Positions 21,527 through 56,803 of a DNA stretch of 64,000 nucleotides are shown piece after piece (positions within the stretch are counted from its first letter, which is position 1; each line of letters begins with the position of its first letter). The notes under the pieces are model-generated. The model saw only the letters and a program-made list of their open reading frames with translations. It ran no database searches and was not told the origin of the DNA. Source of the stretch: Escherichia coli (GTDB taxonomy: Bacteria; Pseudomonadota; Gammaproteobacteria; Enterobacterales; Enterobacteriaceae); assembly GCF_013315695.1 (NCBI RefSeq), contig NZ_CP054353.1. One strand, 5' to 3'. The translations under genes and the position numbers were made by a program.

Positions 21527-21692
21527 ACCAGTGTCCTGCATATCTCTTGTGCGTGATAACGGAGTGTAACAAAAGGGACAGGCATCAAGGGATTTTTTGT
21601 TATTACAGCCGTTGGGTGGCGTTGTACACCTGATCACTGTTTTTGCGGTTTATGGAAAAAATAAAATTATGTATCGATATATAAATATCTGG

Positions 21693-30987: not shown

Positions 30988-31287
30988 ATGGCGCTTACAA
31001 AAGCTGAAATGTCAGAATATCTGTTTGATAAGCTTGGGCTTAGCAAGCGGGATGCCAAAGAACTGGTTGAACTGTTTTTCGAAGAGATCCGTCGCGCTCT
31101 GGAAAACGGCGAACAGGTGAAACTCTCTGGTTTTGGTAACTTCGATCTGCGTGATAAGAATCAACGCCCGGGACGTAACCCGAAAACGGGCGAGGATATT
31201 CCCATTACAGCACGGCGCGTGGTGACCTTCAGACCCGGGCAGAAGTTAAAAAGCCGGGTCGAAAACGCTTCGCCCAAAGACGAGTAA
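30988..31287 (+). CDS. ihfA: integration host factor alpha
   Basis: 99 aa, [35 protein letters not shown]. Confidence 0.97.
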
Positions 31288-31300
31288 TCTGATCTAACTA

Positions 31301-31327
31301 AAAAGGCCGCTCTGCGGCCTTTTTTCT
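31301..31327 (+). terminator. intrinsic terminator after ihfA
   Basis: aggccgctctgcggcct hairpin plus T6. Confidence 0.8.
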
Positions 31328-31556
31328 TTCAATAACCAATTGATTTATAATGTTTTATATCTCTTCGTTCCACGATGTGTCCACATTTAGTGGGGGGAGG
31401 GGAGTAAGCCCGCTACATTGTGGGCTTTGTCTTATAGTCTGATCACTGCTTCAAGTCGGTGAGGACACCAAAAAGAAAACCCGTAGTTTTTATGCTGCGG
31501 GTTTGTTTCATGTCTGTGAGATAGGGTGCCTTATCGACCTTACCCTGGCAACCGAT

Positions 31557-31583
31557 TGACGGGGGATTGCTCCCCCGTCGCGG
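31557..31583 (-). terminator. GC hairpin 3' of the hok-like ORF (candidate mRNA terminal stem-loop)
   Basis: gacggggg-attgct-cccccgtc, an 8-bp perfect stem that begins 6 nt after the hok-like stop. Confidence 0.5.
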
Positions 31584-31588
31584 TTTCC

Positions 31589-31729
31589 TTACTGCTTACA
31601 CTGTAAGAACGCCGCAAACTCCGCTCCCCAGAAGCTCATCCGTATTTCGCACAGTGAACCGTGCAGCATCCAGATGATGAGGATTGCCGTCACGCAGAAC
31701 GTGATGGCCGTAAGCGATTTTTGCGACAT
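31589..31729 (-). CDS. hok: Hok/Gef-family type I toxin (46 aa)
   Basis: An ATG at 31729 with AAGGAG 8 nt upstream opens MSQKSLTAITFCVTAILIIWMLHGSLCEIRMSFWGAEFAAFLQCKQ. One TM helix plus the SLCEIR...AAFL.CK signature of Hok proteins. Not in the track (<60 aa). Confidence 0.75.
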   Translation of the reverse strand: MSQKSLTAITFCVTAILIIWMLHGSLCEIRMSFWGAEFAAFLQCKQ

Positions 31730-31859
31730 AGCACTTGCTCCTTTTCCGGAGAGGCGCTAACCTTTCACTTGTCAAGGTAATGCGGTTAGGGCCTCGGTTA
31801 AACAGAGATGTTTTCCGGGGCCTTTCCACATCTGGCCTTCGGGTATTCCCTCCGACCAT
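31596..31859 (-). CDS. mok-like overlapping reading frame (translational coupler of hok); start uncertain
   Basis: The track's 87-aa ORF overlaps the whole hok-like ORF in another frame, as mok does in R1 hok/sok. No independent protein similarity recognised. Confidence 0.4.
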   Translation of the reverse strand: MVGGNTRRPDVERPRKTSLFNRGPNRITLTSERLAPLRKRSKCYVAKIAYGHHVLRDGNPHHLDAARFTVRNTDELLGSGVCGVLTV

Positions 31860-31957
31860 CAGCCGAAAGGCACCCGCGCGTAATTTACCGTTTCCTGAGT
31901 AAATTCTCCAAATAAAATTCCACAGTCAAAAGTACAGAAACAAAAACAGGTATGTGA

Positions 31958-32215
31958 TCACATCGCCGGAAGTGGCAGCGACATCTGCGCATCACCACGG
32001 TGTGACGCTGGCAGGCTCTGCCACGGAATATCCGGTGAAGTACCACCGCTGCGCTTTACGGTGAGTTTTTCGAAGCTCTCCAGCGTCGAGAAGGAGAGAC
32101 TGCATTCGGGATTGTTGCACTGGTAGAGCTTCTGCCGGACAGTGCGTGAGTCGTTCGCGGCGCGGCTTGTGCGGGTGCGCGTGCTCGCACCACAAAAAGG
32201 ACACGGAAAAGACAT
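31958..32215 (-). CDS. ogr: Ogr/Delta-family zinc-finger late transcription activator
   Basis: MSFPCPFCGASTRTRTSR...YQCNNPECSLSFSTLESF carries the CxxC-N22-CxxxxC pattern of P2 Ogr. Lies downstream of D as in P2. Confidence 0.85.
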   Translation of the reverse strand: MSFPCPFCGASTRTRTSRAANDSRTVRQKLYQCNNPECSLSFSTLESFEKLTVKRSGGTSPDIPWQSLPASHRGDAQMSLPLPAM

Positions 32216-32267: not shown

Positions 32268-33383
32268 TTATTCCTGTTGCGCTATCCATTCAGGAATTTT
32301 TAATTCCAGCTCAAGCCGCGTGGTGAAGCCGCTGTCGTCGATGTTGTGCTCCACCTTCGCCAGTACCCAGTCCTCCGCGTCGATGTCACTCTTGAAACCG
32401 GATACCGTGCCGCGCATTTCGGGGTACAGGTCGGGGCGACCGCGTGCCAGCGTGATGGAGAACTCAGCCGCGCCGCGCTGTAGCTGCTGCCATTTTGCCG
32501 CCGCTGCACGGCGTGCGGCCTCCTCGTTTTTGAAGGTTTTACGCATGACGTACACATTGCCGTCTGCGCCCTCCATGTAATCCCCCTCGCGGCTGCTGCT
32601 TTTCTCCTTTTTTGTTTTTTGGGCAGAACCACGTTTTGTCACGCTGACTTTTTTCTTTTTGCCAAAGTCCAGATCCAGCCAGTAAGCGCGCACCCCCGTG
32701 TACGCCTGCCGGTCTGCAATGCGGAAGTGATGGCTGTCACCGCTGCTGCGGGTGATGGCGAATGAGGGCAGCGGCTTTCCGCTGGCGCTCACCCCCTGTC
32801 CGGGCACGATGAAAAGCAGGGCACCGTTTTTGACGGTGGCGATGGCGCCCAGCATGTCCGCCATGCGCGTGAGAAACGAGATGTCACTTTCCTCCGTCTG
32901 GTCGGCGTGGTCGATTTCCACCTCTGCCAGCGAGGCGCTGATTTGTGCCTTCAGTCCGTAGCGGTACGCGATGGCAGAAACAACCTGTCCCACCGTCACG
33001 TCATGCCAGGACACTTCACGCTTCACGTTGAACTCCTGCCGGAAGTCTGCGCTGCTGGCCGTGATGGTGAGCCTATCCGGTGGTCCCTCATGTGTCACCT
33101 CGTCAACGATGAAGGTTCCCTTGTCTGTCAGCGCCTCACCTTTCCAGCCCAGCGCCAGACCCAGCGTCTGTCCGCGCTTCGGGAGTTGCACTCCGCCGTC
33201 GCAGTCGTCAATCGTGAGGGTTAACTGGTCCGCCTCAAATCCCCGGTTGTCGGTCATCGCCAGCGAGATGACCCGTCGGGTCAGCGCCGCGTTTTCCGTG
33301 CCCTTAACCGTGATGGAAAAATCAGGGATCTTCACGCACTCTGACAGACCGTTCAGGTATCCGCTTACGTCCGCAGGGTTCAT
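32268..33383 (-). CDS. P2 gpD-like tail/late control protein
   Basis: Track ORF 32268..33566. The internal start MNPADVSGYLNG gives 371 aa. Similarity to the gpD family is judged by eye. Confidence 0.85.
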   Translation of the reverse strand: MNPADVSGYLNGLSECVKIPDFSITVKGTENAALTRRVISLAMTDNRGFEADQLTLTIDDCDGGVQLPKRGQTLGLALGWKGEALTDKGTFIVDEVTHEGPPDRLTITASSADFRQEFNVKREVSWHDVTVGQVVSAIAYRYGLKAQISASLAEVEIDHADQTEESDISFLTRMADMLGAIATVKNGALLFIVPGQGVSASGKPLPSFAITRSSGDSHHFRIADRQAYTGVRAYWLDLDFGKKKKVSVTKRGSAQKTKKEKSSSREGDYMEGADGNVYVMRKTFKNEEAARRAAAAKWQQLQRGAAEFSITLARGRPDLYPEMRGTVSGFKSDIDAEDWVLAKVEHNIDDSGFTTRLELELKIPEWIAQQE

Positions 33384-33455
33384 CGCAATTTCTCCGTCTG
33401 TGTCTTCGTCCGGCGAAATACTCCCACGCGCACGGAGGCGCTGTAATCCTGCGTA

Positions 33456-33481
33456 TGTTGTCGGAGAACGGTGAGAACAGG
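33456..33481 (+). promoter_or_regulatory. candidate Ogr-dependent late promoter element (copy 1)
   Basis: tgttgtcggagaacggtgagaacagg, 23/26 identical to 52014-52039. Centred in the D/FI divergent spacer. Confidence 0.35.
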
Positions 33482-33545
33482 CAGCGCGTGAATGCGGGGC
33501 TGTTTTTCGGGAGGATGTCGCCACACAAAACACCAGGAGGTGCTC

Positions 33546-34727
33546 ATGAGTGAAACACGCTTTCACGGTGCACGCGTCAAAGAAAACACCGACCTTGTGA
33601 CCGCGATTAATGACATTGATTCCAGTGTCATCGGTATCGTGGCCACGGCGGACGATGCAGACAGCGACGCGTTCCCGTTAAACAAACCCGTATTGATCAC
33701 CCGCGTGGCGAATGTGCTGGGTAAGGCAGGCACAACAGGCACGCTGTACAAAACGCTCAAGGCGATTTCCGACCAGACCAGCCCGAAGGTTATCGTGGTG
33801 CGTGTGGCTGAAGCCGGAGAGGAAGGTGAGACACAGGATCAGCTTGTCATCGGTGGCTCGCAGGCTGACGGCAGCTACACGGGCATGTATGCCCTGCTGG
33901 TTGCTGAACAGGACGAGAGCATTGGTTACCGCCCGCGCATTCTGGCGGCTCCCGGCCTGGATACCGAAGCAGTCACATCCGCCCTGTGCGTCATTGCGGA
34001 CAAGCTCCGCGCCTTTGTGTACGCCGGATGTAACGGGTGCGACACGATGGCGGAGGCAATCACTTACCGTGCGAAGTTCTCCGCGCGTGAGCTGATGCTG
34101 CTGTGGCCTGACTTCATTGCCTACAACCCGGTGAGCGGAAATAACGAAACATTTCCGGCAGCGGCGTATGCGTGCGGGTTGCGTGCGCGGATTGACAGTG
34201 AACAGGGCTGGCACAAGTCACTGTCCAACGTGGCGCTGAAAAATGTTCTCGGTATGTCGCAGCAGGTGTTCTGGTCGTTGCAGGCCGAAGACAGTGATGC
34301 GAACAACCTGAACAACAAGGAAATCACCACGATTATTCGCCGTAACGGCTTCCGCTTCTGGGGGAACCGTACTGCCGAAACCAGCGACTACATCTTTGAG
34401 GTGTACACGCGCACAGCGCAGATTCTGGCAGATACCATCGCTGAGGCGCAGTTCGAAACCATTGACGAACCGCTGACCCCGGCGAACGTGAAGGACGTGA
34501 TTAGCGCCATCCGCGCAAAACTCAACGCCCTGGTCACCGCCGGGAAACTCATCGGTGCGGAGTGCTGGTATGACGTGCTGGACAACGGCACGACGGATTT
34601 GCGTCAGGGGCGCGTGCGCATCCGCTACAAGTACACGCCAGTGCCGCCGATGGAAGATCTGACGCTGTATCAGACCTTCACGGATGAGTATTTCGACTCC
34701 GCTTTTGCAACGCTGGGAGGTGCGTAA
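33546..34727 (+). CDS. contractile tail sheath protein (gpFI-like)
   Basis: Internal start MSETRFHGARVKE preceded by caggagg. FPLNKPVLITRV and the overall match to P2 FI. 393 aa. Confidence 0.9.
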   Translation: MSETRFHGARVKENTDLVTAINDIDSSVIGIVATADDADSDAFPLNKPVLITRVANVLGKAGTTGTLYKTLKAISDQTSPKVIVVRVAEAGEEGETQDQLVIGGSQADGSYTGMYALLVAEQDESIGYRPRILAAPGLDTEAVTSALCVIADKLRAFVYAGCNGCDTMAEAITYRAKFSARELMLLWPDFIAYNPVSGNNETFPAAAYACGLRARIDSEQGWHKSLSNVALKNVLGMSQQVFWSLQAEDSDANNLNNKEITTIIRRNGFRFWGNRTAETSDYIFEVYTRTAQILADTIAEAQFETIDEPLTPANVKDVISAIRAKLNALVTAGKLIGAECWYDVLDNGTTDLRQGRVRIRYKYTPVPPMEDLTLYQTFTDEYFDSAFATLGGA

Positions 34728-35243
34728 ATGGCTGTACCACGTTACGTTCGCCAGTTCACGCTGTTTGTGAACGGCAAAAACAAAATCGGCACGGTGACAG
34801 GCGTCACTCTGCCCAAGCTGACCCGAAAAACCGAAGCCTATCGCGGTGGCGGGATGCTGGGTGCGGTGCATATTGACCTCGGACTGGATGACGGCGCACT
34901 GGATGCCTCGTTCACCACCGGTGGGGTTGAAAAAGAGCTGCTCCAGGAATACGCCACTGACATTAACGAAGTGGCGCTGCGCTTTGTGGGTGAGCTGTTC
35001 ACCGATGGTGAGGAAAGTCAGCTCCTTGAGGTGGAGATGCGCGGACGCATCACGGAAATCGACCGTGGCGAAACCAAACAGGGCGACACCACACAGTACA
35101 CCTTCGCCGTCAAAAACACCTACTACAAGGAGTCGGTGGATGACAGTGATGTGACAGAAATCGACCTGCTGAACTTCATCTACAAAAAAGACGGCCAGAA
35201 CGTCTTTGGTGACCGCGTGAGTTCGGCGCTCGGTCTGAACTGA
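34728..35243 (+). CDS. tail tube protein (gpFII-like)
   Basis: 171 aa, immediately after the sheath gene. P2 FII size and position. Confidence 0.9.
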   Translation: MAVPRYVRQFTLFVNGKNKIGTVTGVTLPKLTRKTEAYRGGGMLGAVHIDLGLDDGALDASFTTGGVEKELLQEYATDINEVALRFVGELFTDGEESQLLEVEMRGRITEIDRGETKQGDTTQYTFAVKNTYYKESVDDSDVTEIDLLNFIYKKDGQNVFGDRVSSALGLN

Positions 35244-35289
35244 CAGCATTAACAGGGCGGCACATTGTGCCGCCACAGGAGAAAGAAAA

Positions 35290-35673
35290 ATGGCAGCAAA
35301 GAAAGATGACATCATGAACAGCGAAATCGTCGCAGGTGACACCACCACTGAAAACATCGATGTGGCAGAGGAAAAAACGGGGGTGAAGTTATCCTGCCCG
35401 GTGGTGCGTGGCGAACGCGTTATTGACTACGTGGAGATTGGCGAGGAAATCCGTCAGGCAGGCTCGTTGCGCGGGCTGTCTCTGATTGAGGTGCTGAACC
35501 TCAAAACGGACCCGATGATGACGCTGCTTTCGCGCGTGACCGCACCACGCCTGAAGCTGGCAGAAATCCAGACACTGGACACCGGTGATTTCGTGGCGCT
35601 GGCGACTATGGCTGCGAATTTTTTTGCTCCCACGGAGTCTGCGAAACCGTCCGTGGCGGTGATGGAAGCGTAA
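35290..35673 (+). CDS. tail assembly chaperone gpE-like (zero-frame product)
   Basis: 127 aa, between tube and tape measure. Contains the slippery run near its 3' end. Confidence 0.8.
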   Translation: MAAKKDDIMNSEIVAGDTTTENIDVAEEKTGVKLSCPVVRGERVIDYVEIGEEIRQAGSLRGLSLIEVLNLKTDPMMTLLSRVTAPRLKLAEIQTLDTGDFVALATMAANFFAPTESAKPSVAVMEA

Positions 35674-35837
35674 TCACGCTGGCGAAGTTCGACAACGTTG
35701 AAGAACTGGTCGCTGATATAGCAGTCGTGTTTAACTGGTCGCCCGGCGAGATATTCTCAATGCCTCTCGTCGAGGTGATGAGCTGGCGTGAGCGGGCGGC
35801 GCAACGTAGCGGAGTCCGCAACAGTGAAATCCCTTGA
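35290..35837 (+). CDS. gpE+E'-like fusion made by programmed -1 frameshift at T7G (about 35619-35626)
   Basis: After a -1 slip the frame stays open for 70 codons (..ITLAKFDNVEELVADIAVVFNWSPGEIFSMPLVEVMSWRERAAQRSG..) to the tga at 35835. This is the P2 E/E' and lambda G/GT paradigm. Confidence 0.65.
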
Positions 35838-38800
35838 TATTCGTGTCAGCTTTGGCGCAATTGACCGGCTGACATGCCCGACCGAAAACGCCCGCCGTCA
35901 GGTGGGCGCTCTCACTGAATCCCTTCAGAAGACGCAGAACAACATACAGGCGCTCGACAGACAGTCGAAGGTGTTCGATCGTGCCGCCGGAAATCTCAGT
36001 AAATACCGCGAACAGATTGCCCGCGCGGAGCAGAGGCTCGCCGGGCTGCGAAAGGCAGAGCAGAACGGTAACATCCTCTCCGAAAAGCAGCGCGAAACGC
36101 TGGCGGCACTCTCCGCGCGGCTTGAGCGCCTGAACGAGCTGCGCACGCGCGAGCGCGAAAAACTCCAGGCGGCGGCTGGCGAAATGCGTAAACATGGCAT
36201 TCTGCTTTCCGGCAGCAGCCGCACCATCGAAAGTGCCGTTCGTCGCACGCAGCAGTACAACGAGCAGCTCGAGCGTGAACGGCAGGCTCTGGCTCGCGTG
36301 ACGCAGGCACAGAGCCGCTATGAGGCCGCGAAGGCACAGGCGGAAAAACTGCGCAACACAGGGGCTGTGGCGATGGCGGCGGGTACAGGCGGCCTGTATG
36401 CGGCGCAGCGCATGATGGCTCCGGCGATGGAGTCCGAACAGCACGGTGCGGTCATCGCAGCCGGTTCGGGGGAAGGCGCACAGGATGGCGCACGTTACAC
36501 CCACATCATCCGTAACATACAGGCTGACGGTCTCGCTGATTTTGCCGGTGCTGCGGAGGCCGTGAGTGCGGTACGCAGCACGCTCGGCGCACTGGGCGAC
36601 ACCGGTGACAGGGAGCTTGAGCGCATCAGCCGTCGTGCGCTGGATATGCGGACCGTCTTTGGTGTTGATGTGCCGCAGAGCATTCAGGCCGCTGCCATCA
36701 TGATGAAGAACGGGCTGGCCGCCAGCAGTGACGAGGCTACTAACCTGATGACGGCAGGGATGCAGCGCATGTCCGCTGAAATGCGCGATGAACTGCCGGA
36801 AATTCTGCATGAGTATTCCACCCACTTCCGCAACATGGGCTTCACCGGCAGCGAGACAATGAGTCTGCTGGTTGAGATGGCAAAGCAGGGCAAGTTTGCG
36901 CTGGACAAAACCGGCGATGCCGTGAAGGAGTTCAGTATCCGTGGTTCGGATATGTCGAAATCCAGTGTTTCAGCGTATGAGACACTTGGCCTGAATGCCG
37001 AACGGGTGTCTGCTGCCATTGCTCAGGGGGGCAGTACCGCACGCCAGGCGATGCAGGTGACCGCCCGTGCACTGCTGGCCATCCGTGACCCGGCAGAGCG
37101 GGCGAACACGGCCATTGCGTTATTCGGCACCCCCGTTGAAGACCTTTCCGTTGACCAGATCCCGCAGTTCCTGAGGGCGCTGGCTGATGTTCGTGACAAT
37201 CTGGGCGATGTCACCGGTGTGGCAGACCGCATGGGGCAGACGCTGCGCGGTAATCTCTCCGGCGATATTCAGGCGCTGAGTGGTGCGTTCTCAGGGCTAC
37301 GCACGGACATCTTCGGTACTGTGACCGAGGATTTGCGCGGGCTGGTTCAGACGGTGAGCGCGTGGGTGACCCGGATGCGCGAATGGGTCGGAGAGCATCA
37401 GGCGCTGGTCAGGGTGCTGGTACTGGCGGGCGGGAGTGTTCTGGCGCTGTCTTCTACGTTCGGTGCGCTGTCACTGACGCTCGGGCTGATTGCGGGGCCG
37501 CTGGCAAAACTGCAACTGGGACTGGGGCTGCTGACGGGGGGCGGCGGCATTGGTGGTGCTGTCCGGCTTGTGTCTGCGATGGCGCTGCGCCTGACGGGGC
37601 TGCCTGCGCTGTGGGGGCTGGTCACGGGGGCGGTGTCGGTACTGGGTGGTGCAGTGGGGGCGCTGTTCAGCCCGGTCGGGCTGATTGTTGCCGCCCTGGT
37701 GGGCGGCGCGGTTCTGGTGTGGAAATACTGGGATCAGATCAGTGCGTTTTTTTCCGGCTTTTTTGCCGGAGTGTGGGAGGCGCTGCAACCGCTGCGGGAA
37801 GCCTTTGCGTCGCTGGCTCCGGTGTTCGGGCTGATTGGCGATGGCATCAAAGCCGTGTGGGAATGGTTCACCCGCCTGCTTGAACCTGCAAACGCCTCAA
37901 AAGAGACACTCGACAAATGCACCAGCGCCGGGGAGTCGTTCGGGAAAACGCTGGGGTGGGTCATTCAGAACATTGTGCTGGGGCCGCTGACACTGCTTCT
38001 TGATGGCCTCGGCACAGTGCTGAAGTGGCTGGGTGTTATCCCGGATGGCATCAGGGAAGCGCAGAAGGAGACGCAAAAACTCCAGGAGAGCGCCGCAAAA
38101 CAGGCCACACAAAAAGCGCCGGTTGCGTGGGAGTGGGATCCTGCACAGAAAAAAATGGTGCAGAAAACATGGTCGTGGTCATCAGATGCAGCGGAAAACA
38201 ACGGTGACAATAAACCCGCAATACCTGCCCCTGCGGTTCCCGGAGAGGTGAAGGGAACGTCAGACAATCCGGTCGGCAAACCCGGTAGTAAATCCCCGCT
38301 GGATGAGGCATGGTTCCGGCAGGGGATACAGAAAACCGCCAGCAACACCGGCGGGCTGCTTGAGGAAACCAAAAAACGTACTGGTCCCGGCGATATTGTT
38401 TTCAAAAACCTGCCCGGACCCGAAATCATTCACGGCGAGTGGAAAGCACCGCAGGTTATCCGGACAGTGCAGGCGGTATCGGCGGGCGGAGGACTGGCGG
38501 ATGCGCTGACAACGCTCTGGCAGAAACTCACCGGAAGACAGACTGCTTCACCCGTTCCGGTCGTGAATATTCCTGCGCCAGTGGAGAGAGTGGCACGTCA
38601 GGTATCCACGCTGCCACAGCCGCAGCACAACGAGGCAAATACAGAACTGGTTGCCGGTATTCAGCGCGTGCATGAGGCTGTGAACAGTCCGGGGGGAGAG
38701 ACGGTATCGCCTCCACCTGTGGTGAACGTTCTGATGCCAGCAGTGAATGTTCCTGCGCCAGTGGTGAGTGTGGCGCGTCAGGTATCCACGCTGCCGCAGC

Positions 38801-39288
38801 ACAACGAGGCAAATACAGAACTGGTTGCCGGTATTCAGCGTGTGCATGAGGCGGTGAACAGTCCGGGTGGAGAGACGGTATCGCCTCCACCTGTGGTGAA
38901 CGTTCTGATGCCAGCAGTGAATGTTCCTGCGCCAGTGGTGAGCGTGGCCCGTCAGGTATCCACGCTGCCGCAGCACAACGAGGCAAATACAGAGCTGGCT
39001 GCCGGTATTCAGCGCGTGCGTGAGGCTGTGAACAGTCCGGGTGGAGATGTGGCTTTATCTGTTCCTGTTGCGGAGGTTATCCGTCCACCGCTGCGACCGG
39101 AGTCCGTCAAAAAAGAAACCGCGCCACAAACGCAGGCTGCGGTATTTTCCGGTGAGATACACGTGCATCTGCACAACGTCAACACGCAGAATCCGCGTGA
39201 ACTGGCAAAACTGGTTGGCGAGGCTGTCCGCGAAGAGATGCGCAGACAGGTGCGTACAGGCATGAACAGCTTCCGTGACAGGGACTAA
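35788..39288 (+). CDS. tail tape measure protein (gpT-like), 1166 aa; start may be GTG 35824
   Basis: Long Ala/Gly/Leu-rich ORF with a central hydrophobic glycine-zipper region (..GLLTGGGGIGGAV..). Position between E/E' and U. Confidence 0.85.
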   Translation: MSGRRNVAESATVKSLDIRVSFGAIDRLTCPTENARRQVGALTESLQKTQNNIQALDRQSKVFDRAAGNLSKYREQIARAEQRLAGLRKAEQNGNILSEKQRETLAALSARLERLNELRTREREKLQAAAGEMRKHGILLSGSSRTIESAVRRTQQYNEQLERERQALARVTQAQSRYEAAKAQAEKLRNTGAVAMAAGTGGLYAAQRMMAPAMESEQHGAVIAAGSGEGAQDGARYTHIIRNIQADGLADFAGAAEAVSAVRSTLGALGDTGDRELERISRRALDMRTVFGVDVPQSIQAAAIMMKNGLAASSDEATNLMTAGMQRMSAEMRDELPEILHEYSTHFRNMGFTGSETMSLLVEMAKQGKFALDKTGDAVKEFSIRGSDMSKSSVSAYETLGLNAERVSAAIAQGGSTARQAMQVTARALLAIRDPAERANTAIALFGTPVEDLSVDQIPQFLRALADVRDNLGDVTGVADRMGQTLRGNLSGDIQALSGAFSGLRTDIFGTVTEDLRGLVQTVSAWVTRMREWVGEHQALVRVLVLAGGSVLALSSTFGALSLTLGLIAGPLAKLQLGLGLLTGGGGIGGAVRLVSAMALRLTGLPALWGLVTGAVSVLGGAVGALFSPVGLIVAALVGGAVLVWKYWDQISAFFSGFFAGVWEALQPLREAFASLAPVFGLIGDGIKAVWEWFTRLLEPANASKETLDKCTSAGESFGKTLGWVIQNIVLGPLTLLLDGLGTVLKWLGVIPDGIREAQKETQKLQESAAKQATQKAPVAWEWDPAQKKMVQKTWSWSSDAAENNGDNKPAIPAPAVPGEVKGTSDNPVGKPGSKSPLDEAWFRQGIQKTASNTGGLLEETKKRTGPGDIVFKNLPGPEIIHGEWKAPQVIRTVQAVSAGGGLADALTTLWQKLTGRQTASPVPVVNIPAPVERVARQVSTLPQPQHNEANTELVAGIQRVHEAVNSPGGETVSPPPVVNVLMPAVNVPAPVVSVARQVSTLPQHNEANTELVAGIQRVHEAVNSPGGETVSPPPVVNVLMPAVNVPAPVVSVARQVSTLPQHNEANTELAAGIQRVREAVNSPGGDVALSVPVAEVIRPPLRPESVKKETAPQTQAAVFSGEIHVHLHNVNTQNPRELAKLVGEAVREEMRRQVRTGMNSFRDRD
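38563..39050 (+). repeat. about 2.7 tandem copies of a 174-180 bp coding repeat within the tape measure gene
   Basis: Units start at 38563, 38743 and 38917 (gtgaat(a/g)ttcctgcgccagtgg..). Protein repeat: PAVNVPAPVVSVARQVSTLPQHNEANTELVAGIQRVHEAVNSPGGETVSPPPVVNVLM. Confidence 0.85.
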
Positions 39289-39301
39289 AGGAGACGCAAT
39301 T

Positions 39302-39760
39302 ATGATGATGATTTTTGGCATGTTTGTGTTTGAACTGAAAACGCTGCCGCATCAACAGATTCAACAAAACAAAACGTGGCGGCATGTGAAAAATGAGCGA
39401 ATCAACCGTTCTGCGGCCTGGCAGTATATTGGCGCAGGTGACGACCAGATCACGCTGTCCGGTCTGCTGTACCCGGAAATTACCGGCGGTGAGGTGTCGC
39501 TGACACTGCTGAACACCCAGGCCTACACCGGATGTCCCTGGCCGCTGATTGATGGTACGGGGCAGATTTACGGAATGTACGTGATTACGGGATTACAGAC
39601 CACCCGCTCCGAACTGGATCGCTACGGGAAGGCAAAAAAGATTGAGTTCTCCATCAGCTTTCAGCGGTGTGATGAGGATATGCGGGAGAGGCTTCAGTCT
39701 GCTTCTGCAGGTGATTTACTGAACACGCTTAAAGACAAAATGGCGATAGCGGCATTCTGA
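39302..39760 (+). CDS. tail protein gpU-like
   Basis: Internal start MMMIFGMFVFELKTLPHQQ after taaaggag. Resembles P2 U (MMVLGLFVF..TLPYQ..). 152 aa. Confidence 0.85.
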   Translation: MMMIFGMFVFELKTLPHQQIQQNKTWRHVKNERINRSAAWQYIGAGDDQITLSGLLYPEITGGEVSLTLLNTQAYTGCPWPLIDGTGQIYGMYVITGLQTTRSELDRYGKAKKIEFSISFQRCDEDMRERLQSASAGDLLNTLKDKMAIAAF

Positions 39761-39761
39761 A

Positions 39762-39793
39762 TAAAAAAAGAGGGAGTGTAAAAAGCACTCCCT
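39762..39793 (-). terminator. intrinsic terminator T1 (minus-strand polarity)
   Basis: The minus strand reads agggagtg-cttttta-cactccct followed by cttttttt. Confidence 0.65.
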
Positions 39794-39880
39794 TATTGCC
39801 TTCATGGAAAAGAAGCAAATGTTGTCAATACATTCTGACTATATATAAATCGCCCGATGAAGGCAATGGTGATGTTCGGG

Positions 39881-39907
39881 AAATAAAAAAGCCCTCACAA
39901 AGAGGGC
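39881..39907 (-). terminator. intrinsic terminator T2 (minus-strand polarity)
   Basis: The minus strand reads gccctc-tttgt-gagggc followed by ttttttattt. Confidence 0.7.
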
Positions 39908-40070
39908 GGCATGCATTGTGTGAAGATTTAATTTTTCTGCTTGCAGGGGGATTATATTGAACGGTATTCATTCAATGCAATATTTTTAATTGTCATTATC
40001 ATTAATGAAAATGTTTCTTGTGTTTTTGTTGCTCTGATTACAATCCCGTTTATTACTGTGTCTTTGCGGC

Positions 40071-40096
40071 AAAAAAAAAGCCCGCACGGGGCGGGC
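40071..40096 (-). terminator. intrinsic terminator T3 (minus-strand polarity), downstream of the tfa pseudogene
   Basis: The minus strand reads gcccgc-cccgt-gcgggc followed by T9. Confidence 0.75.
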
Positions 40097-40140
40097 AAAG
40101 AATGTTTGCATGTGTAGAACAGTGCGGGATTATAAATATA

Positions 40141-40710
40141 TTATGCGTTCTGAAAAGTCCCCTTTGATGGAGATTCAGGCCATACCAGCGCATTATAACA
40201 ATCTTTATTCATCACGGAAGTGAACGTCAACTGCTGAAGTTCCCTAATATATTCAATCCACGTAGCCAACCTTCCCTTGTCTGCATTGCTGATGGTGCCG
40301 GGCAATAACTCAGATTGCCAGATTCTGATCCTCTCTTTTGCCTCCGGCAGCAGGGGATTTCGTTGTCATTCTGCTTTAGCCTGCCACTTTTCAGGTGGCA
40401 GCACATGACGAACAATATTTTCATCATCAAATATCCAGTTACCTGAGTCATCAGCACGTTGGTTAGCGTTAATATCAGAAGTATTAACAACACTAAAACC
40501 GACATGATTAAGTGTTGATGCCTCTCTGGTAATGGTGACAATAATATTATTTCGTTGTAAATCATTTTGATTTTATCTGGTCGAAAGGTCCCTGCTTCGT
40601 TATGTCAGTTTTATCGCCTTCAGAGGAAACCAGATTACTTTGTGCTTCTTTTTCTAACACATACAGTCCCGGAGTTAATATTGCCTGTTTTATGTTCTTG
40701 AGTGCATCAT
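40141..40710 (-). pseudogene. P2 gpG-like tail fibre assembly (Tfa) gene, disrupted
   Basis: Pieces in shifted frames: (MM)..LKNIKQ.. ; ..NNIIVTITREASTLNHVGFSVVNTSDINANQRADDSGNWIFDD.. ; an in-frame TGA at 40366-40368 ; ..RLATWIEYIRELQQLTFTSV..ALVWPESP. Compare P2 G [44 protein letters not shown]..VD...PEWP (from memory). Confidence 0.7.
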
Positions 40711-40765
40711 ATTAATCTCTTACATATTGTATCTGGTGAAATTTATAATTTTCTGAAGCTGCCTG

Positions 40766-40905
40766 AAAGAATTGAGTTTCCTGCAGGCTTTCAATGGTGT
40801 GATGAGGATATGTGGGAGAAACTCCAGTCTGCTCCTGCAGGGGGGGCTTACTGAACACTATCAAAGACAAATCTTCGTCGTTGATCGCATTCCCTTAACC
40901 TGACG
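40766..40905 (+). pseudogene. duplicated, frameshifted 3' fragment of a second gpU allele (U')
   Basis: About 80% nt identity by eye to 39636-39760 (..attgagtt..ctttca..ggtgtgatgaggatatg.gggaga..ct.cagtctgct.ctgcagg..ttactgaacac...aaagacaaa). No 5' part, and a G-run frameshift. Confidence 0.7.
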
Positions 40906-40938
40906 CCACCACCCCACACAGATGACGGGGTGGTGGCG
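40904..40938. other. 12-bp perfect GC-rich hairpin between U' and the convergent tail-fibre-side genes
   Basis: cgccaccacccc-acacagatgac-ggggtggtggcg. No T-run on either side. Confidence 0.6.
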
Positions 40939-40943
40939 TGATT

Positions 40944-41240
40944 TCACCAGTAACTAACCAGCAGCCAGAACAACAGGCATATTGCCACTGGTGCAGCAAA
41001 ATCCATCAGGCTTCCGGCATCCCACACGCGCGGATCAAAACCACCCCACCAGGGCATGTTAATTCGTTTCCCTTTCCCGAATTTTTCAATCCAGCGATAT
41101 TCTGCCTGGGTGTGTTCACGCGCAATGAAGAACGAGCAACCGGCTATCGCTCCGTAAACCCAGTTTCCCGTAAGAATGCCAGCCAGTACCTGCGCAGCCA
41201 CGGCACAAAGTGCATGAAGGACAGGCGTTATATCCATCAC
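40944..41240 (-). CDS. small hydrophobic (2-3 TM) protein of unknown function
   Basis: 98-aa ORF, last gene of the tail-fibre transcription unit. Hydrophobic N- and C-termini (..VLHALCAVAAQVLAGIL.. / ..FAAPVAICLLFWLLVSYW). Confidence 0.6.
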   Translation of the reverse strand: MMDITPVLHALCAVAAQVLAGILTGNWVYGAIAGCSFFIAREHTQAEYRWIEKFGKGKRINMPWWGGFDPRVWDAGSLMDFAAPVAICLLFWLLVSYW

Positions 41241-41249
41241 TCCCTCCCT

Positions 41250-41528
41250 TCAGCTCCATTCCCGAAGCGGTGCTTCCAGCTCCACCACATAATCAGAGAA
41301 CACAGAAACATCAAACGTATCATCAAGAATACGAATGTTGACAAAATAACCGTCATTCCGGATACAGACAGGTTCTCCCTCTTCATTTTCCCCTGTTTCT
41401 GTATAGGTGAAACCAATTTCATCGACTAACAGTTTGTTCTGGAGGTCTTCATTTTCCTCCCAGCCAAGAGATGACAGGAGGGCTTTAAACTGCTGTTTGT
41501 CATGAAACTTCAAAGTCAAATCTTTCAT
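41250..41528 (-). CDS. 92-aa acidic protein, occupies the position of the tail fibre assembly gene but is not Tfa-like
   Basis: ORF overlaps the H stop by 4 nt (coupled). No gpG motifs. Confidence 0.6.
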   Translation of the reverse strand: MKDLTLKFHDKQQFKALLSSLGWEENEDLQNKLLVDEIGFTYTETGENEEGEPVCIRNDGYFVNIRILDDTFDVSVFSDYVVELEAPLREWS

Positions 41529-43306
41529 ATTGCCTCTCTTAATTGCCTGTCATTTAATTCTTTATGCCATATGCGGAAATTACGAATGTGACCAAACAGA
41601 TGTCGTTCTCCAGTACTCGTTCGCCCTCCAATACGGATAATTGCGGAGTTCTGAATATATGACCATGTGGTTTTTGTTTCGCCGGATAACCGTCCGTTAC
41701 TGACTGAGCATGTAGACTGATCTGACTTTACTCGCATCCCTATAACCATTTTTTCAAGTGATGCGTTTTCGTTTACCCGCATGTTAGCCCCGCCTATATC
41801 GCAATAAGGAAATCCGTCGTAATCCGTCGAACGACCGAATCCAAGAATAATTTCCTCTCCAGTTTGATGACCACTGGTATTAAGAACACGCGGTGCTGCA
41901 TTTGGCGTTTTATACCAGTTCTTATGTACCTCACAAAGAACAGTAAAAGGAGGATTATAAAGATTATTCTTAACCGGAACTGTCACAATATCACTTGCAC
42001 GTGTTGCTGGTGTTGCACCCGATATAATAAATGATGATGCGCAGGGGCCATTTTCAACCTGAGGGGTGGACAGGAAAACATAATCTCCTGATTCAACGAC
42101 ACCACCTTCTTTCGGAGTGTATTGTATTGCCGATGTTATGTAGGACTCATCAATTGCCTGAATCGTTGCCTCTGCAAAAATCCAGCCGGTAACCTCATCT
42201 TTGTTAACTCGGGCAGTGATCCTGTCGGCAGCTCCTCCTGTGATTTTAACTGATAAAGATCGCGTATTAACAATGGCATATCCAAGGTTAGATGATGTGT
42301 TGCCATCGTAAGATTCAAACCTGATCCTTAACATGAGTTCCAGATCAGTTTTAAATCTGCACGATGTCGTCACGCACTTATTATCGCCTGAAACATCGAC
42401 GGCTCCGGTTACTGCAACTGATGCCATGTTAACAGGCAGGGACTGCCCAATCAGAGAATCGTTACAGACGAACTTTCCATAGGTAAAACCAGAACTGTCC
42501 GTCCCGGTTTCGGGAACATCCATATTTACCGACTTGCCCCAGTTGACCGGGGTTTCCGAATTGAGCATGTAGTTTGTTCTTTGCCCTTCAATAAGCAGTC
42601 CATCGCGTTCAAATCGCGGCTCATTAATTTCAGCTATTTTCAGTTCACCGGATTTATTGATATAGGTTGCCGTTGATGCGCGACTGAAACTAACCTGTTT
42701 ATCACTGGCAACCTGAACCACATCGTCACCAATGGTGATTTTTTTATAGCCCGGTGCGAACCCCGTAAGCATATCCAGTGAATCGTTAAACGGTATCCAC
42801 ACATCAGGCAGCGGCGGTACAGACTCCTTTTCCTGCGCAACATATTCTTCAACATAGGCGCGGGTGGCGAGCACGACAGAGGGATCAACTTTCAGTTCGA
42901 CAGACGAAGCACTGGAAACCACAACAATCATGCGAATCGTCTGCGTGCGCCCGCTTCCCTCGGTGAGTACAGGCTTGTAGGTTTCGGGGCAGTTCGCCAC
43001 GGCAATCATCACGCCGTCGCTGTCAAAAAGCCCAATCTCGCGGATCCAGAACCCCCCTTTATCTTCCGGGATAATCATCTCGGCGATAAGCTGGCTGGCA
43101 TCAGACGCGCTGATGCTCAGTTGATTCAATGGGGCGCTGTATACCGTGTTCACCAGATTTTCCATGGAAGCCTCCGGTTCCGGCAGGCTGCCGCCGCCAT
43201 CCCCCAGTTTCATGGTGGTGATGGATATTTTCGAGCCGCTGGCCACCGCCTTTGCCAGACGGGCGGCACCCTTGTCAGTCAGAACAGAAAAATATTTTAC
43301 AGTCAT
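41525..43306 (-). CDS. tail fibre protein, gpH-like N-terminus with divergent C-terminal receptor-binding part
   Basis: N-terminal 150 aa align by eye with P2 H (..ITTMKLGDGGG.LP.P....L...V.......IAE..IP...GGFW.RE.GL.D..G..IAVAN..E.YKP...EGSGR.Q..R..). The C-terminus ends ..LFGHIRNFRIWHKELNDRQLREAI, which is LamG/ConA-like. Confidence 0.85.
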   Translation of the reverse strand: MTVKYFSVLTDKGAARLAKAVASGSKISITTMKLGDGGGSLPEPEASMENLVNTVYSAPLNQLSISASDASQLIAEMIIPEDKGGFWIREIGLFDSDGVMIAVANCPETYKPVLTEGSGRTQTIRMIVVVSSASSVELKVDPSVVLATRAYVEEYVAQEKESVPPLPDVWIPFNDSLDMLTGFAPGYKKITIGDDVVQVASDKQVSFSRASTATYINKSGELKIAEINEPRFERDGLLIEGQRTNYMLNSETPVNWGKSVNMDVPETGTDSSGFTYGKFVCNDSLIGQSLPVNMASVAVTGAVDVSGDNKCVTTSCRFKTDLELMLRIRFESYDGNTSSNLGYAIVNTRSLSVKITGGAADRITARVNKDEVTGWIFAEATIQAIDESYITSAIQYTPKEGGVVESGDYVFLSTPQVENGPCASSFIISGATPATRASDIVTVPVKNNLYNPPFTVLCEVHKNWYKTPNAAPRVLNTSGHQTGEEIILGFGRSTDYDGFPYCDIGGANMRVNENASLEKMVIGMRVKSDQSTCSVSNGRLSGETKTTWSYIQNSAIIRIGGRTSTGERHLFGHIRNFRIWHKELNDRQLREAI

Positions 43307-44079
43307 GAAAAAATCCTCAAAGAATCCTCCAGAAATACCACTGATGCTGTCAGGGTTCCGGTTGTGGCGGTCAGTTGCATCACCGCCTGTGGCTCCACGG
43401 TCACCGCATCATCGCCCGTAACCTGTAATCCCATGACAATCCCCGCATCGACAGATACCGACGGTGTCGGCGGGTAAATGGTGAGCATGTCGCCGTCAAA
43501 GAAAGCCGGAGATGCCCGGAACACCGAAACAGTCTCAACACCGGCAGAAGCGGCTGGCCAGATTGTTGTTTCACTGCCGTCGTGCATGCCGGAAAACACA
43601 CGTGCGACTCCCTGCGTATCCAGCATAATGTTCAGCGAGGCAAGGTGGCGGCTGACCGGACGGGCATCGTCGATCAGTCGTGTCAGCTCGGAGTACGTTT
43701 CCTCTGTGATACCCGCGTCCTGCACGCCAATATCAATGCGGAACGTGCCGCGCGGGTCGCCGTTCTGCCACCACTCCGTCACGTTAATGACATAGCCAAA
43801 GGGTTCAACCACACGCCTGATGGCGCTGATGGTTCCCTTATGGCGGTGGATTGCCCAGGCATCACGGATCACCTGGCGCTTTGTTTCTTCCGTCCAGTCA
43901 CGATCCCACCTGTCCACGGACAGCGCCCACGCCAGATAAGGCAGCAGGGCTGCCGGGCAGGTGTCAGGATCCCAGAGCTGGTTAAGGCTGACAGGTAATG
44001 CTGACAACCGGGCGGTTCCCCGCTCCACGCAGCGCATGAAATCGCTGGCTGAAGGGGGGAGAAGTGACGGTTCACTCAT
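43303..44079 (-). CDS. baseplate/tail fibre attachment protein gpI-like
   Basis: Internal start MSEPSLLPPSAS overlaps the J stop. The motif LLPYLAWALSVD.W is typical of the gpI family. Confidence 0.8.
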   Translation of the reverse strand: MSEPSLLPPSASDFMRCVERGTARLSALPVSLNQLWDPDTCPAALLPYLAWALSVDRWDRDWTEETKRQVIRDAWAIHRHKGTISAIRRVVEPFGYVINVTEWWQNGDPRGTFRIDIGVQDAGITEETYSELTRLIDDARPVSRHLASLNIMLDTQGVARVFSGMHDGSETTIWPAASAGVETVSVFRASPAFFDGDMLTIYPPTPSVSVDAGIVMGLQVTGDDAVTVEPQAVMQLTATTGTLTASVVFLEDSLRIFS

Positions 44080-44968
44080 TGGTTCCCCCTGTGCTGACCG
44101 TGAACGATGTGCAGTACGCTGACTGCACATCACTGATAACAATATTCTGTGCGGGGCTGGTCAGTTCCACGCGCTGAACGCCCTGAACATGCAGTGCGGC
44201 CATGATGGCGGAGAGCGCGACATCGCGACCGATTTTGCCCTGTTCGGCAAGCCAGGTTTCCAGATTGTTTCTGGCGGCATTCAGGATGGGTTCCGACTCC
44301 GGCCCCGGATAAAAGTAAAGCCGGGCATCAATCTGATACCGTATGATTTCTGCGCTCTGCACCGTCAGACGGTCACCGACCGGGCGAACGTCTTCGGCAT
44401 TCAGCGCATTTCTGACCGTTGTCAGGAGTTCTTCGGTCGCCGTGCCGTCGCCTTCTGTGGACAACACTGTCACCACCACTTCCGCCGGTGCGGGGCTGGT
44501 TGCGCGCGCGTCCGCCACCTGACCGCTGGCACTGCGGGCAAAATATTCATACGCCCCGGTGGGACCGGCCACGCTGAGGCCATCAAATGCAGACTGCGCA
44601 CGCAGCCGCAGGGCGGAGTCGCTTTCCATGACGGCCTCCGTGGTGTCCATGGCCGGTGTGATGACCAGCCGCGCGGTGTTCATGTTGGCAGCGAGGTTGT
44701 CCAGGTCATCACCTGTGGAATGGCTCAGCATACAGGCCGCTGCGCCCTCATTAATGCGCTGGCGAAGCAGCAGTTCACGCAGCGCGAAAGCCTGGGCAAT
44801 GACCGTGAGCGGTTCGGACTCCAACGCCATGGCTGACCGGATGGCAGCCTGCTGTGTCTGTGGAAATGACGTAATGATGTCTTCTTTCACTTCCGCTAGG
44901 ATGACTTCAAAATCCGGCGTTTCAATAATCTGTGGTGTCGGCAGTTCCGACAGGTCAACGGCTGGCAT
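44072..44968 (-). CDS. baseplate assembly protein gpJ-like
   Basis: 298 aa. Order W-J-I as in P2. Confidence 0.9.
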   Translation of the reverse strand: MPAVDLSELPTPQIIETPDFEVILAEVKEDIITSFPQTQQAAIRSAMALESEPLTVIAQAFALRELLLRQRINEGAAACMLSHSTGDDLDNLAANMNTARLVITPAMDTTEAVMESDSALRLRAQSAFDGLSVAGPTGAYEYFARSASGQVADARATSPAPAEVVVTVLSTEGDGTATEELLTTVRNALNAEDVRPVGDRLTVQSAEIIRYQIDARLYFYPGPESEPILNAARNNLETWLAEQGKIGRDVALSAIMAALHVQGVQRVELTSPAQNIVISDVQSAYCTSFTVSTGGTNE

Positions 44969-45320
44969 TGTCGCTCCTGAGTGTCAGTGTGTTCTGTACG
45001 GTTTCCAGGCTTTCTGTCAGTGTGCCGGTGAGGGTGATAACGGCTTTTCCGCCCGCCTCCCACTGAATGTCAACGGCATTCAGGGCGATGCGTGGCTCCC
45101 ACTGTGTCAGGGCAATCACCACGGCGCTCATGCACTGAAGGCGCGTGGTGGCATTCATCGGTGCATCCAGCAAATCCGGCAGCAGGCTGCCGTATTCCCG
45201 GCGCATCACCCGGCTGGCGAGCGGTGTTAACAGAATATCCCTCACGCTGTTCCACAGATGGTCCGTGTCGCTGAGCGTGCCGGTGGCCTCGGGGTTCATC
45301 CCCAGAAAACGGGCACTCAC
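44955..45320 (-). CDS. baseplate wedge protein gpW-like (GPW/gp25 family)
   Basis: 121 aa. ..SVRDILLTPLASRVMRREYGSLL.DLLD.P motif. Confidence 0.85.
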   Translation of the reverse strand: MSARFLGMNPEATGTLSDTDHLWNSVRDILLTPLASRVMRREYGSLLPDLLDAPMNATTRLQCMSAVVIALTQWEPRIALNAVDIQWEAGGKAVITLTGTLTESLETVQNTLTLRSDNASR

Positions 45321-45898
45321 TGCGGGCCTCCTGTGCTGTCACCGCCGCTCTTCACGCCACTGTGTTTGTGCGTGTGCAGCGTCACACCGTTTGAGGTGAA
45401 ATCACCGCCGCTGTGCGAGATACTGCCACTCATGGTTCCGCCTTCTGTCACCTCAATCGTTGTCGTCTTCAGATGGTTTGTGCAGGTGACGGTGGGGGTA
45501 TCCAGCGTCACGCCTGTTCCGGCCTGAATGGTGGCAGTTTTGATTCCGCTGGCGCTCAGTGCGCCAGCGTCCGCATCGTAGCGGAACACCGCGCCGTCAG
45601 GCGCTGTAACCACGATTTCCGTCAGGCTGCTGCCGGGCGCCGGATGTTCGCTGCTCCAGAGACTGCCGATGACGGACGCGGTCGCGGGGTCGCCACCGAT
45701 GCAGGCAATCATGACCTGTTCGCCCACGGCAGGCGGCAGCCAGACGCTGAACGCGCCCGCGCGTGGTGTGTTCCAGCGCAGCCAGTCGGTTTCCAGCTCT
45801 CCGCTGCGCACGCGAACGCGCCACGTTGTTTCGTCCACGGCAAAAATCACGCCCGTGCGGATGATATTTGCAAGCAGTCGCATGATTTCCGCTGTCAT
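45317..45898 (-). CDS. baseplate spike/assembly protein gpV-like
   Basis: 193 aa. ..VRVRSGELETDWLRW.. motif and position before W. Confidence 0.85.
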   Translation of the reverse strand: MTAEIMRLLANIIRTGVIFAVDETTWRVRVRSGELETDWLRWNTPRAGAFSVWLPPAVGEQVMIACIGGDPATASVIGSLWSSEHPAPGSSLTEIVVTAPDGAVFRYDADAGALSASGIKTATIQAGTGVTLDTPTVTCTNHLKTTTIEVTEGGTMSGSISHSGGDFTSNGVTLHTHKHSGVKSGGDSTGGPQ

Positions 45899-52013: not shown

Positions 52014-52039
52014 TGTTGTCGGAGAACCGCCAGAACAGG
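52014..52039 (+). promoter_or_regulatory. candidate Ogr-dependent late promoter element (copy 2)
   Basis: tgttgtcggagaaccgccagaacagg in the O/P divergent spacer. See copy 1. Confidence 0.35.
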
Positions 52040-56799: not shown

Positions 56800-56803
56800 T
56801 GGT

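Follow-up and report, generated by a model that had tools for sequence, protein, structure and literature searches.

In phages P2 (Peduovirus) and 186 (Eganvirus), the late tail genes FI-FII-E/E'-T-U-D-ogr form one co-directional unit downstream of H-G, with D overlapping or abutting U; the annotated records of both phages confirm this order, on which the original prediction for the present DNA relied. A second order is annotated in P88 and its Xuanwuvirus relatives, including Citrobacter phage Shae_phiSM. There, ogr and D lie together with V-W-J-I-H, and FI-FII-E-E'-T-U diverges from them over a spacer of approximately 157 bp and converges on the tail-fibre genes. The identical layout is annotated in an E. 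coli TUM9803 prophage, in Novemvirus phiT5282H, Reipivirus ST16-OXA48phi5.4 and Reginaelenavirus 3LV2017, and in Serratia phage KSP20, and at least four named Peduoviridae genera thus have the inverted order as their rule. The P2-like Stenotrophomonas phage Smp131 is also described as having its tail operons rearranged, with a putative PP'/PO' site shared by both directions (PMC3931495). As described, its rearrangement is a different one, with V/W moved relative to J-I-H-G, and its host belongs to another group.

The window analysed here is a stretch of 64,000 nucleotides of E. coli DNA containing a prophage that adjoins ihfA. Its P2-family late genes were identified using PHROG, Pfam and tblastn searches with P2 proteins, and FI, FII, E, T, U and D of the tail module are all represented by homologues, as is the Ogr/Delta zinc-finger activator (Table 1). 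The canonical P2/186 order is absent. D and ogr share the minus strand with V-W-J-I-H, and FI-FII-E/E'-T-U lies on the plus strand, where it diverges from D and converges on the tail-fibre genes. These gene identities and strands are as originally predicted, and the predicted 162-bp spacer is exact, since D starts at the ATG at 33383, preceded by a GGAG Shine-Dalgarno sequence, and FI at the ATG at 33546. The layout is of the P88 type, in which D-ogr diverges from FI over some 150-160 bp and U converges on the tail fibres. Compared by gene order, the block runs opposite to its counterpart in P2 and 186 and matches the P88-type genera.

Table 1. Features of the prophage late region, with positions in the 64,000-nucleotide window.
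Feature	Position	Strand	Evidence or remark
ogr-like late activator gene, 85 aa, C4 zinc finger	31958..32215	-	Pfam Ogr_Delta PF04606 E = 2e-13; 40% identity to P2 Ogr
D, tail/baseplate hub protein, 371 aa	32268..33383	-	phrog_52 tail protein E = 2e-151; 48% identity to P2 D
D/FI divergent spacer, 162 bp	33384..33545		sequence read directly
-10-like hexamer GAGTAT, predicted D-ogr promoter (predicted start near 33412)	33418..33423	-	44.5-49.5 nt from dyad centre
Dyad GTTGT-N12-AGAAC, candidate Ogr-type activator site for two divergent late promoters	33457..33478		motif search, spacer comparison
-10-like hexamer GAGGAT, predicted pF promoter (predicted start near 33523)	33511..33516	+	43.5-48.5 nt from dyad centre
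FI, tail sheath	33546..34727	+	phrog_23 E = 1.6e-127; 47% identity to P2 FI
FII, tail tube	34728..35243	+	phrog_55; 43% identity to P2 FII
E and E+E' tail chaperones	35290..35837	+	phrog_103; 41% identity to P2 E
T, tape measure; start GTG 35788 or GTG 35824	35788..39288	+	phrog_28 E = 9.5e-111
U, tail protein	39302..39760	+	phrog_76 E = 1e-65; 47% identity to P2 U from 39302
Three terminator-like hairpins between the converging operons	39771-39793, 39891-39907, 40080-40096		terminator scan
G' pseudogene, tail-fibre assembly gene remnant without N-terminus, in-frame stop	40249..40551	-	tblastn, P2 G residues 56-156, 44% identity
U' relic, degraded copy of the last ~41 U codons	40766..40905	+	direct repeats D3, D15 with U
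GC-rich hairpin, abuts U' and faces the tail-fibre operon	~40903-40940		-29 / -30.8 kcal/mol on the two strands, z about -5.4 to -5.5
Two small ORFs downstream of H	41250-41528, 40944-41240	-	88% identity to lambdoid phage DNA
Tail fibre H	41525-43306	-	Pfam Phage_tail_fib N-terminus, phrog_1419 C-terminus
I, J, W, V baseplate genes	43303..45898	- (same as D, ogr)	tblastn with P2 proteins, 43-57% identity
Second dyad GTTGT-N12-AGAAC, in the divergent spacer between O (scaffold, -) and P (large terminase, +)	52015..52036		motif search

The flipped tail-gene block is thus an ordinary one, being the normal order of a large catalogued group of P2-like phages formed by P88 and its relatives. We consider it probable, taking this together with the in-place inversion and shared activator site proposed below, that the prophage is a P88-like (Xuanwuvirus-type) member of the P2 family with the gene order typical of its lineage. 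Like the Xuanwuvirus genomes it carries a hok/mok-type toxin gene beside ogr, and nucleotide identity to them is approximately 74-81%, a figure that applies only to queries of 2.2-3.4 kb spanning ogr-D-FI(-FII); megablast covered 18-27% of a 10-kb query. In P88 a DNA invertase and a tail-fibre segment that can be inverted lie between U and H, where the window prophage has only the G' pseudogene and the U' relic. Its T protein is also longer, at about 1155-1166 aa compared to 935 aa in P88. The Novemvirus, Reipivirus and Reginaelenavirus phages of Enterobacter and Klebsiella, and Serratia KSP20, share the inverted layout but are more distant (66-72% amino-acid identity in D). They also have different cargo after U, ahead of the tail fibres; Reipivirus, for example, carries a DUF262 protein in that position.

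Of the 5426 complete E. coli genomes, 1188 (22%) carry the divergent D/FI junction in collinear form, with at least 80% of a 2.2-kb query covered, and 1686 (31%) have the canonical P2 T-U-D junction. Among phage records, a query made by fusing U and D found the two genes adjacent in 382 of 516 and in separate places in about 48. In the records that were sampled, D proteins of more than 66% identity all belonged to the separated group, and those from records with adjacent U and D were all at or below about 50%. As a discovery, then, the layout matters little, as it is standard in a catalogued phage group and common in E. coli. The original prediction had allowed that its novelty would be lost if the order proved to be the norm in a described clade, and this is indeed the case. 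We found no explicit description of the inversion in the literature on Xuanwuvirus, on P88, on P2-like gene order, inversion, diversity and hotspots, or on the C. rodentium prophage, so the statement that the layout is already known rests on public annotated and classified genomes and not on a paper discussing it. Thousands of P2-like genomes have by now been catalogued (PMC13100340), and where P2 serves as the template, annotators and synteny tools should expect two tail-region layouts at roughly similar frequency in E. coli.

Because the inversion severs D-ogr from the FI operon, D needs a promoter of its own, as had been reasoned from the gene order, and the D/FI spacer offers a plausible predicted candidate. 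The pattern GTTGTN12ASAMC has two exact matches in the 64 kb, at 33457 and 52015, compared to 0.44 expected, and a 27-nt version of the D/FI dyad recurs solely in the O/P spacer, the two dyads being nearly identical. A third dyad of the pV type was not found in the window as an exact match; matches with one mismatch were at chance level (15 vs 13.4 expected) and none lay at an obvious promoter position, although there may be a weaker site. At the expected offset, the O/P dyad is followed by TAGCCT, the hexamer that occupies -12 to -7 of the P2 pP start. The core of the D/FI dyad, TGT-N12-AGA (33459-33476), is one mismatch from the P2 Ogr site consensus TGT-N12-ACA (PMC3931495), as its right half-site reads AGA and not ACA; the D/FI dyads of relatives carry a perfect ACA. 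The dyad is also similar to the activator sites that the P2 record annotates. A reading of the dyad as TGT-N15-ACA was rejected, as anchoring on GTTGT gives N12, which is the P2 consensus spacing. The D/FI spacers of nine related loci measure 151-162 bp, with those of Novemvirus, Reipivirus, Reginaelenavirus and KSP20 at 151-154 bp and carrying a central GTTGT-N12-A(C/G)A(A/C)C dyad. One such dyad is found, centrally placed, in ten of the ten loci compared, among which a Klebsiella locus (L010, CP052639) with a scrambled tail region contributed its spacer only. No RNA family was detected by Rfam in the D/FI spacer or in the convergence zone between U and the tail fibres.

Predicted promoter elements flank the dyad on both sides. 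Towards FI, a GA..AT hexamer occurs at the pF-side offset, or at most 3 nt from it, in the 10 spacers (hand count), and P2 pF has GAAAAT at the same offset as the predicted pF hexamer of the window. Towards D, the placement of the predicted -10 element appears to mirror the geometry of P2 pP and pO, for which the P2 record annotates a single activator site, with each start 55.5 nt from the dyad centre as read from the sequence. We suggest that one dyad drives both pF and a D-ogr promoter, by analogy with the way in which one site serves the divergent pP and pO of P2. A single central site would then activate pF, rightward from FI to U, and a leftward promoter for D and probably ogr.

The rival view is that D-ogr is not driven by the shared dyad, and that D is instead read from a sigma-70 promoter or another Ogr-independent one, conventional or internal, or that only ogr has a separate promoter, as it does in P2 and 186, both of which have distinct ogr/B promoters. 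The D-side -10 candidates are indeed weak, with a hexamer that differs among genera, and the leader length varies: the dyad lies 68.5-71.5 nt from the D start codon in most genera and approximately 84 nt from it here, so if the shared-site model holds the extra length must sit in the leader. A consensus scan detected no sigma-70-like promoter on the minus strand of the spacer, however, and the gap between D and ogr is only 52 bp and has no evident promoter. In addition, a D-side sequence block lies at a fixed distance from the dyad in the window and in Novemvirus, and resembles the O-side block of the O/P spacers. We therefore regard a separate promoter as rather unlikely, and retain the shared dyad as the preferred reading. 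The regulatory point is a modest one: the inversion sets a symmetric candidate activator site between D and FI, giving a simple account of the late control of D and ogr. We would add, with a confidence falling a little short of even, that late transcription in this clade may start from just two bidirectional Ogr-type sites (O/P and D/FI) serving four units, namely P-Q, O through the tail fibres, FI-U and D-ogr, and that the inversion was tolerated since the dyad works both ways. If this two-site reading is true, D-ogr gained a promoter, and ogr a positive feedback loop, once cut off from the F operon.

With respect to origin, the late gene set is shared with P2 and 186, as are the E/E' slip site and an Ogr-type activator. 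Candidate sites of the TGT-N12-ACA type, one of them probably serving the divergent P and O promoters together, are further points in common. The late genes are evenly diverged from P2, at 37-57% amino-acid identity with the exceptions of S (26%) and T (24%); tblastn values include 47% for FI, 43% for FII, 47% for U, 48% for D, 47% for V, 48% for P and 49% for Q. This evenness fits an old inversion in place and not an imported module. From these comparisons we infer that, in an ancestor of the enterobacterial clade, a segment comprising pF, its Ogr site and FI-FII-E/E'-T-U was flipped in situ between G and D, which would have broken the P2-type coupling of U and D and brought the dyad-symmetric Ogr site upstream of D.

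Three other histories can be weighed against such an inversion. A foreign sheath-tube-tape-measure cassette, taken from another contractile-tail lineage and inserted in reverse, might account for a T protein that is some 350 residues longer than P2 T as well as poorly conserved, and the adjoining tail-fibre end clearly undergoes mosaic exchange. Tape measures are generally very variable, though, and FI, FII, E and U resemble their P2 counterparts (41-47%) as closely as do the flanking genes D, V, W, P and Q (43-49%). The pF-type dyad has also kept its spacing to the FI start codon, at 90 nt compared to 94 nt in P2, and we judge such a replacement improbable. A tail module that is flipped by a site-specific invertase of the Gin/Cin/Pin type comes to mind because in both P88 and Shae_phiSM a gene for a DNA invertase separates U from the tail-fibre genes. 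In P88 the invertase borders alternative tail-fibre ends, the usual role of such an enzyme, and the window gave no significant match to it (best tblastn E = 0.017 over 35 residues). The opposite orientation was seen in none of the close relatives examined, and no inverted repeats link the two borders of the block, making a switchable segment very improbable.

Least credible of all is an assembly artefact in which the FI-U block was oriented wrongly, a reading whose sole point in favour is the difference from P2 and 186. Misassembly is excluded, in line with the original prediction, because the junction is collinear in the 1188 independent complete E. coli genomes, and it is equally so in independently sequenced phages such as P88, which was chemically induced, and PhiSM, which is spontaneously active. 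Each border moreover carries coherent features, the conserved dyad at the D/FI end and the terminators and relics at the tail-fibre end. An old in-place inversion thus remains our preferred history. A search for inverted repeats at its two borders had been suggested as a check, and the repeat search found no inverted pair linking 33384-33545 with 39761-40940, as would be expected of an old event.

The zone where U converges on the tail fibres is probably a recombination scar, made up of terminators, the G' pseudogene and the U' relic, that was left by later exchanges of tail-fibre ends between phages already having the inverted layout. The first of its terminator-like hairpins folds at -18 kcal/mol (z = -3.9). 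The U' fragment is plus-stranded and abuts a hairpin, as had been claimed, and it repeats, in the same orientation, the 3'-terminal part of U, with 79% identity at 40766-40841 and 88% at 40848-40871, and is broken by a frameshift. The same relic is present in the TUM9803 prophage, which is itself approximately 90% identical over this region. The plus-strand relic shows, as proposed earlier, that the inverted layout is older than the last tail-fibre-end exchange. An ORF at 40227-40565 (112 aa) was considered as cargo and rejected, because the homology to P2 G is in another frame, with an in-frame stop and no start.

Within the inverted block, E ends at 35673 and has a putative -1 slip site, TTTTTTG, at 35620-35626, from which the -1 frame is open to 35837 as a predicted E' that overlaps the start of T. 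T contains a tandem repeat at 38563-39047, with 2.8 copies of a 174-nt unit. The U ORF opens at a GTG at 39275, and its homologues match from the ATG at 39302.

Gene calls made with PHROG and Pfam scans and with tblastn using P2 proteins place a P2-family prophage just past ihfA, from where it reaches at least the window end; the host flank of pheS, pheT and ihfA is 99% identical to E. coli. The original prediction held that FI-FII-E/E'-T-U is inverted relative to P2 and 186, diverging from D across a 162-bp spacer. The ATG codons of D (33383) and FI (33546) give this spacer length, and the annotated P2 and 186 records run V-W-J-I-H-G and then FI-FII-E-E'-T-U-D-ogr on one strand, so the gene layout is borne out in full.

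Features of the prophage and its flank, with amino acid identity to P2 (tblastn) where determined
Feature	Coordinates	Strand	Identity to P2 (%)	Remark
Low-GC part of host flank	21000-24500			
632-aa ORF	21693-23591	-		
STnc540 match	31229-31373	+		Rfam
hok/sok-type locus	31579-31875	-		
Ogr/Delta zinc-finger gene	31958-32215	-		PHROG/Pfam/tblastn
D	32268-33383	-	48	PHROG/Pfam/tblastn
Dyad in D/FI spacer	33457-33478			
FI	33546-34727	+	47	PHROG/Pfam/tblastn
FII	34728-35243	+	43	PHROG/Pfam/tblastn
E	35290-35673	+	41	slip site TTTTTTG 35620-35626; E' frame open to 35837
T	ends 39288	+	24	PHROG/Pfam/tblastn
Tandem repeat in T	38563-39047	+		
U	ends 39760	+	47	PHROG/Pfam/tblastn
Promoter match	40129-40156	-		sigma-70-like
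G fragment (G')	40249-40551	-		
U' relic	40766-40905	+		
Zone of tail fibre H	40944-43306	-		
H, I, J, W, V, then S, R, lysis genes, X, L, M, N, O		-	J 56, W 43, V 47, S 26	PHROG/Pfam/tblastn
P, Q		+	P 48, Q 49	PHROG/Pfam/tblastn
Q-A cargo	54900-57800			
DUF3800 protein	55450-56256	+		
StbB	56488-56934	-		
ParM/StbA	56804-57763	-		

In a megablast search of phage records, 31500-41500 hit the Xuanwuvirus phages P88, P884B11, PhiR44_2 and Citrobacter Shae_phiSM in single places (2-3 pieces) covering ogr-D-spacer-FI-FII, and in the annotated matches the arrangement equals that of this prophage gene for gene. A second search, run at higher sensitivity with only the junction as query, added Enterobacter phiT5282H (Novemvirus), Klebsiella ST16-OXA48phi5.4 (Reipivirus), Klebsiella 3LV2017 (Reginaelenavirus), many Klebsiella Kp48xx phages and Serratia KSP20, where D again lies on the strand opposite FI-FII-E-T-U, which converges on the tail-fibre genes. 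When a fused U+D protein was used as an adjacency probe, 516 phage records held a D homologue; U and D were side by side on one strand, the canonical order, in 382 of these and apart in about 48. In sampled records, D identity above 66% went with the separated type in every case, and D identity was at most about 50% in every case of adjacent U and D. The inverted layout thus marks a coherent enterobacterial subgroup. The divergent junction is collinear in 1188 of 5426 complete E. coli genomes (2.2-kb query, at least 80% covered), and the P2 T-U-D equivalent is found in 1686. The closest prophage in this collection, from strain TUM9803, has 92% identity and the same order throughout.

The same junction in phages and in so many E. 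coli genomes excludes misassembly, which had been raised as a possible source of the arrangement. It had also been foreseen that novelty would fall if a described peduovirus clade had this order as its norm, and Xuanwuvirus and the other genera bring this about: a large clade has the layout as its norm. Inverted-layout genomes are already public, annotated and classified, and both P88, which was induced chemically, and PhiSM, which is spontaneously active, are active temperate phages, so the layout is known and works, though it has drawn little comment; searches and term look-ups found no explicit discussion of the FI-U inversion in papers on P88, the C. rodentium prophage, P2-like diversity and defence hotspots. 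In short, the original prediction was right in what it observed and in how it read the structure, but the feature itself is ordinary. Among the phage records, a 32-kb Klebsiella pneumoniae 'plasmid' (CP052639) has a P2-like genome in which the sheath gene is split and the tail block displaced; this element may have been rearranged or misassembled.

Identity to P2 is even over the late region, with only T and S well under the range, so the FI-U block is no more foreign than the neighbouring late genes. The simplest history is that the segment between G and D was inverted once. Alternatively, FI-U could be a switchable segment. P88 does have an invertase, which flanks alternative tail-fibre ends, the usual job of such enzymes. 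Here, no inverted repeats survive at the inversion borders, where a search had been proposed, and an invertase gene is absent from the 64-kb window, which together argue against switching.

In the zone where U meets the tail-fibre genes, three terminator-like hairpins lie 3' of U, and beyond them a fragment homologous to P2 G residues 56-156 contains an in-frame stop and lacks a start, and so is a tail-fibre-assembly pseudogene, G'. A 112-aa ORF at this site is spurious, the G homology being in another frame. The U' relic, a degraded copy of the U end (79-88% identity, frameshift in a G run), adjoins a strong hairpin, as had been claimed. Past this hairpin come two small minus-strand ORFs with 88% identity to DNA of lambdoid and Stx-converting phages, and then H, a mosaic whose N-terminus is P2-like (residues 1-163, 49% identity) and whose C-terminal part matches the PHROG tail-protein family phrog_1419, not P2 H. 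Together, the mosaic and the lambdoid ORFs indicate that phage families have exchanged the receptor-binding end. In the TUM9803 prophage, U, G', U' and the hairpin follow one another in the same way. We read the zone as the scar of exchange between two phages in which U already faced the tail-fibre genes, so that the layout would predate the last exchange, in support of the original prediction. The top sigma-70-like promoter match of the region (TTTTCA-16-TATAAT, 10/12) lies in non-coding sequence here; it faces the stacked terminators, and no gene is evident downstream of it.

The D/FI spacer contains one dyad, GTTGT-N12-AGAAC. Its 27-nt version, TTGTTGTCGGAGAAC-N4-AGAACAGG, has one further copy only in 64 kb, inside the divergent O/P spacer, and GTTGTN12ASAMC matches exactly twice, in these two spacers, against 0.44 expected. 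The dyad fits the P2 late-promoter consensus TGT-N12-ACA (PMC3931495) with one mismatch, has the same GTTGT half-site as each of the three annotated P2 activator sites, and lies 90 nt from the FI start codon (94 nt in P2). In the P2 record, the divergent promoters pP and pO have one annotated activator site in common, 55.5 nt from each mapped start when measured from the dyad centre read off the sequence. Four points of likeness to P2 thus support the dyad as a candidate Ogr-type site. Among D/FI spacers from 10 loci (151-162 bp; E. coli prophages and phages of at least four genera), all ten carry a single dyad of this kind close to the middle, with a GA..AT hexamer on the FI side at, or at most 3 nt from, the expected offset, and the conserved D-side block resembles the O side of O/P spacers.

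The pP/pO geometry also fits this spacer. Relative to the dyad centre (33467.5), two -10-like hexamers stand at +43.5 to +48.5 (GAGGAT) and, on the other strand, at -44.5 to -49.5 (GAGTAT); they predict one start near 33523 with a leader of about 23 nt and another near 33412 with a leader of about 29 nt. The inversion would have carried a symmetric Ogr site to a place upstream of D, where one site would serve both pF, the predicted FI-side promoter, and a D-ogr promoter. The conserved central dyad and the mirrored hexamers suggest that the site is probably shared. Weak points of this model are the half-site mismatch, weak D-side hexamers and variable leader length, the distance from dyad to D ATG being 68.5-71.5 nt in most genera and about 84 nt here. 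This predicted bidirectional late promoter is the remaining point of modest interest.

The tape-measure gene T contains a tandem repeat of 174 nt (58 codons; 2.8 copies, 93% identity). Its product is about 1155-1166 aa, compared to 815 aa in P2, and this greater length suggests a longer tail. At the prophage end, adjoining ogr, is a hok/sok-type toxin-antitoxin locus with a small Hok-like ORF (Rfam sok match 48.4 bits, under the gathering score of 59, E = 1.6e-8); P88 has a MokW/hok gene at the same place. Just ahead of the prophage start, a match to the enterobacterial sRNA STnc540 (41.1 bits, gathering score 38) overlaps the ihfA 3' end, and further into the host flank is a part with about 40-43% GC that includes a 632-aa ORF. 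Cargo flanked by Q (portal) and the replication gene A, a position equivalent to that of old and tin in P2, includes a DUF3800 protein matching the PADLOC candidate defence family PDC-M04A (E = 2.6e-35) and a plasmid-partition pair, ParM/StbA and StbB, that is unusual in an integrated P2-like prophage.
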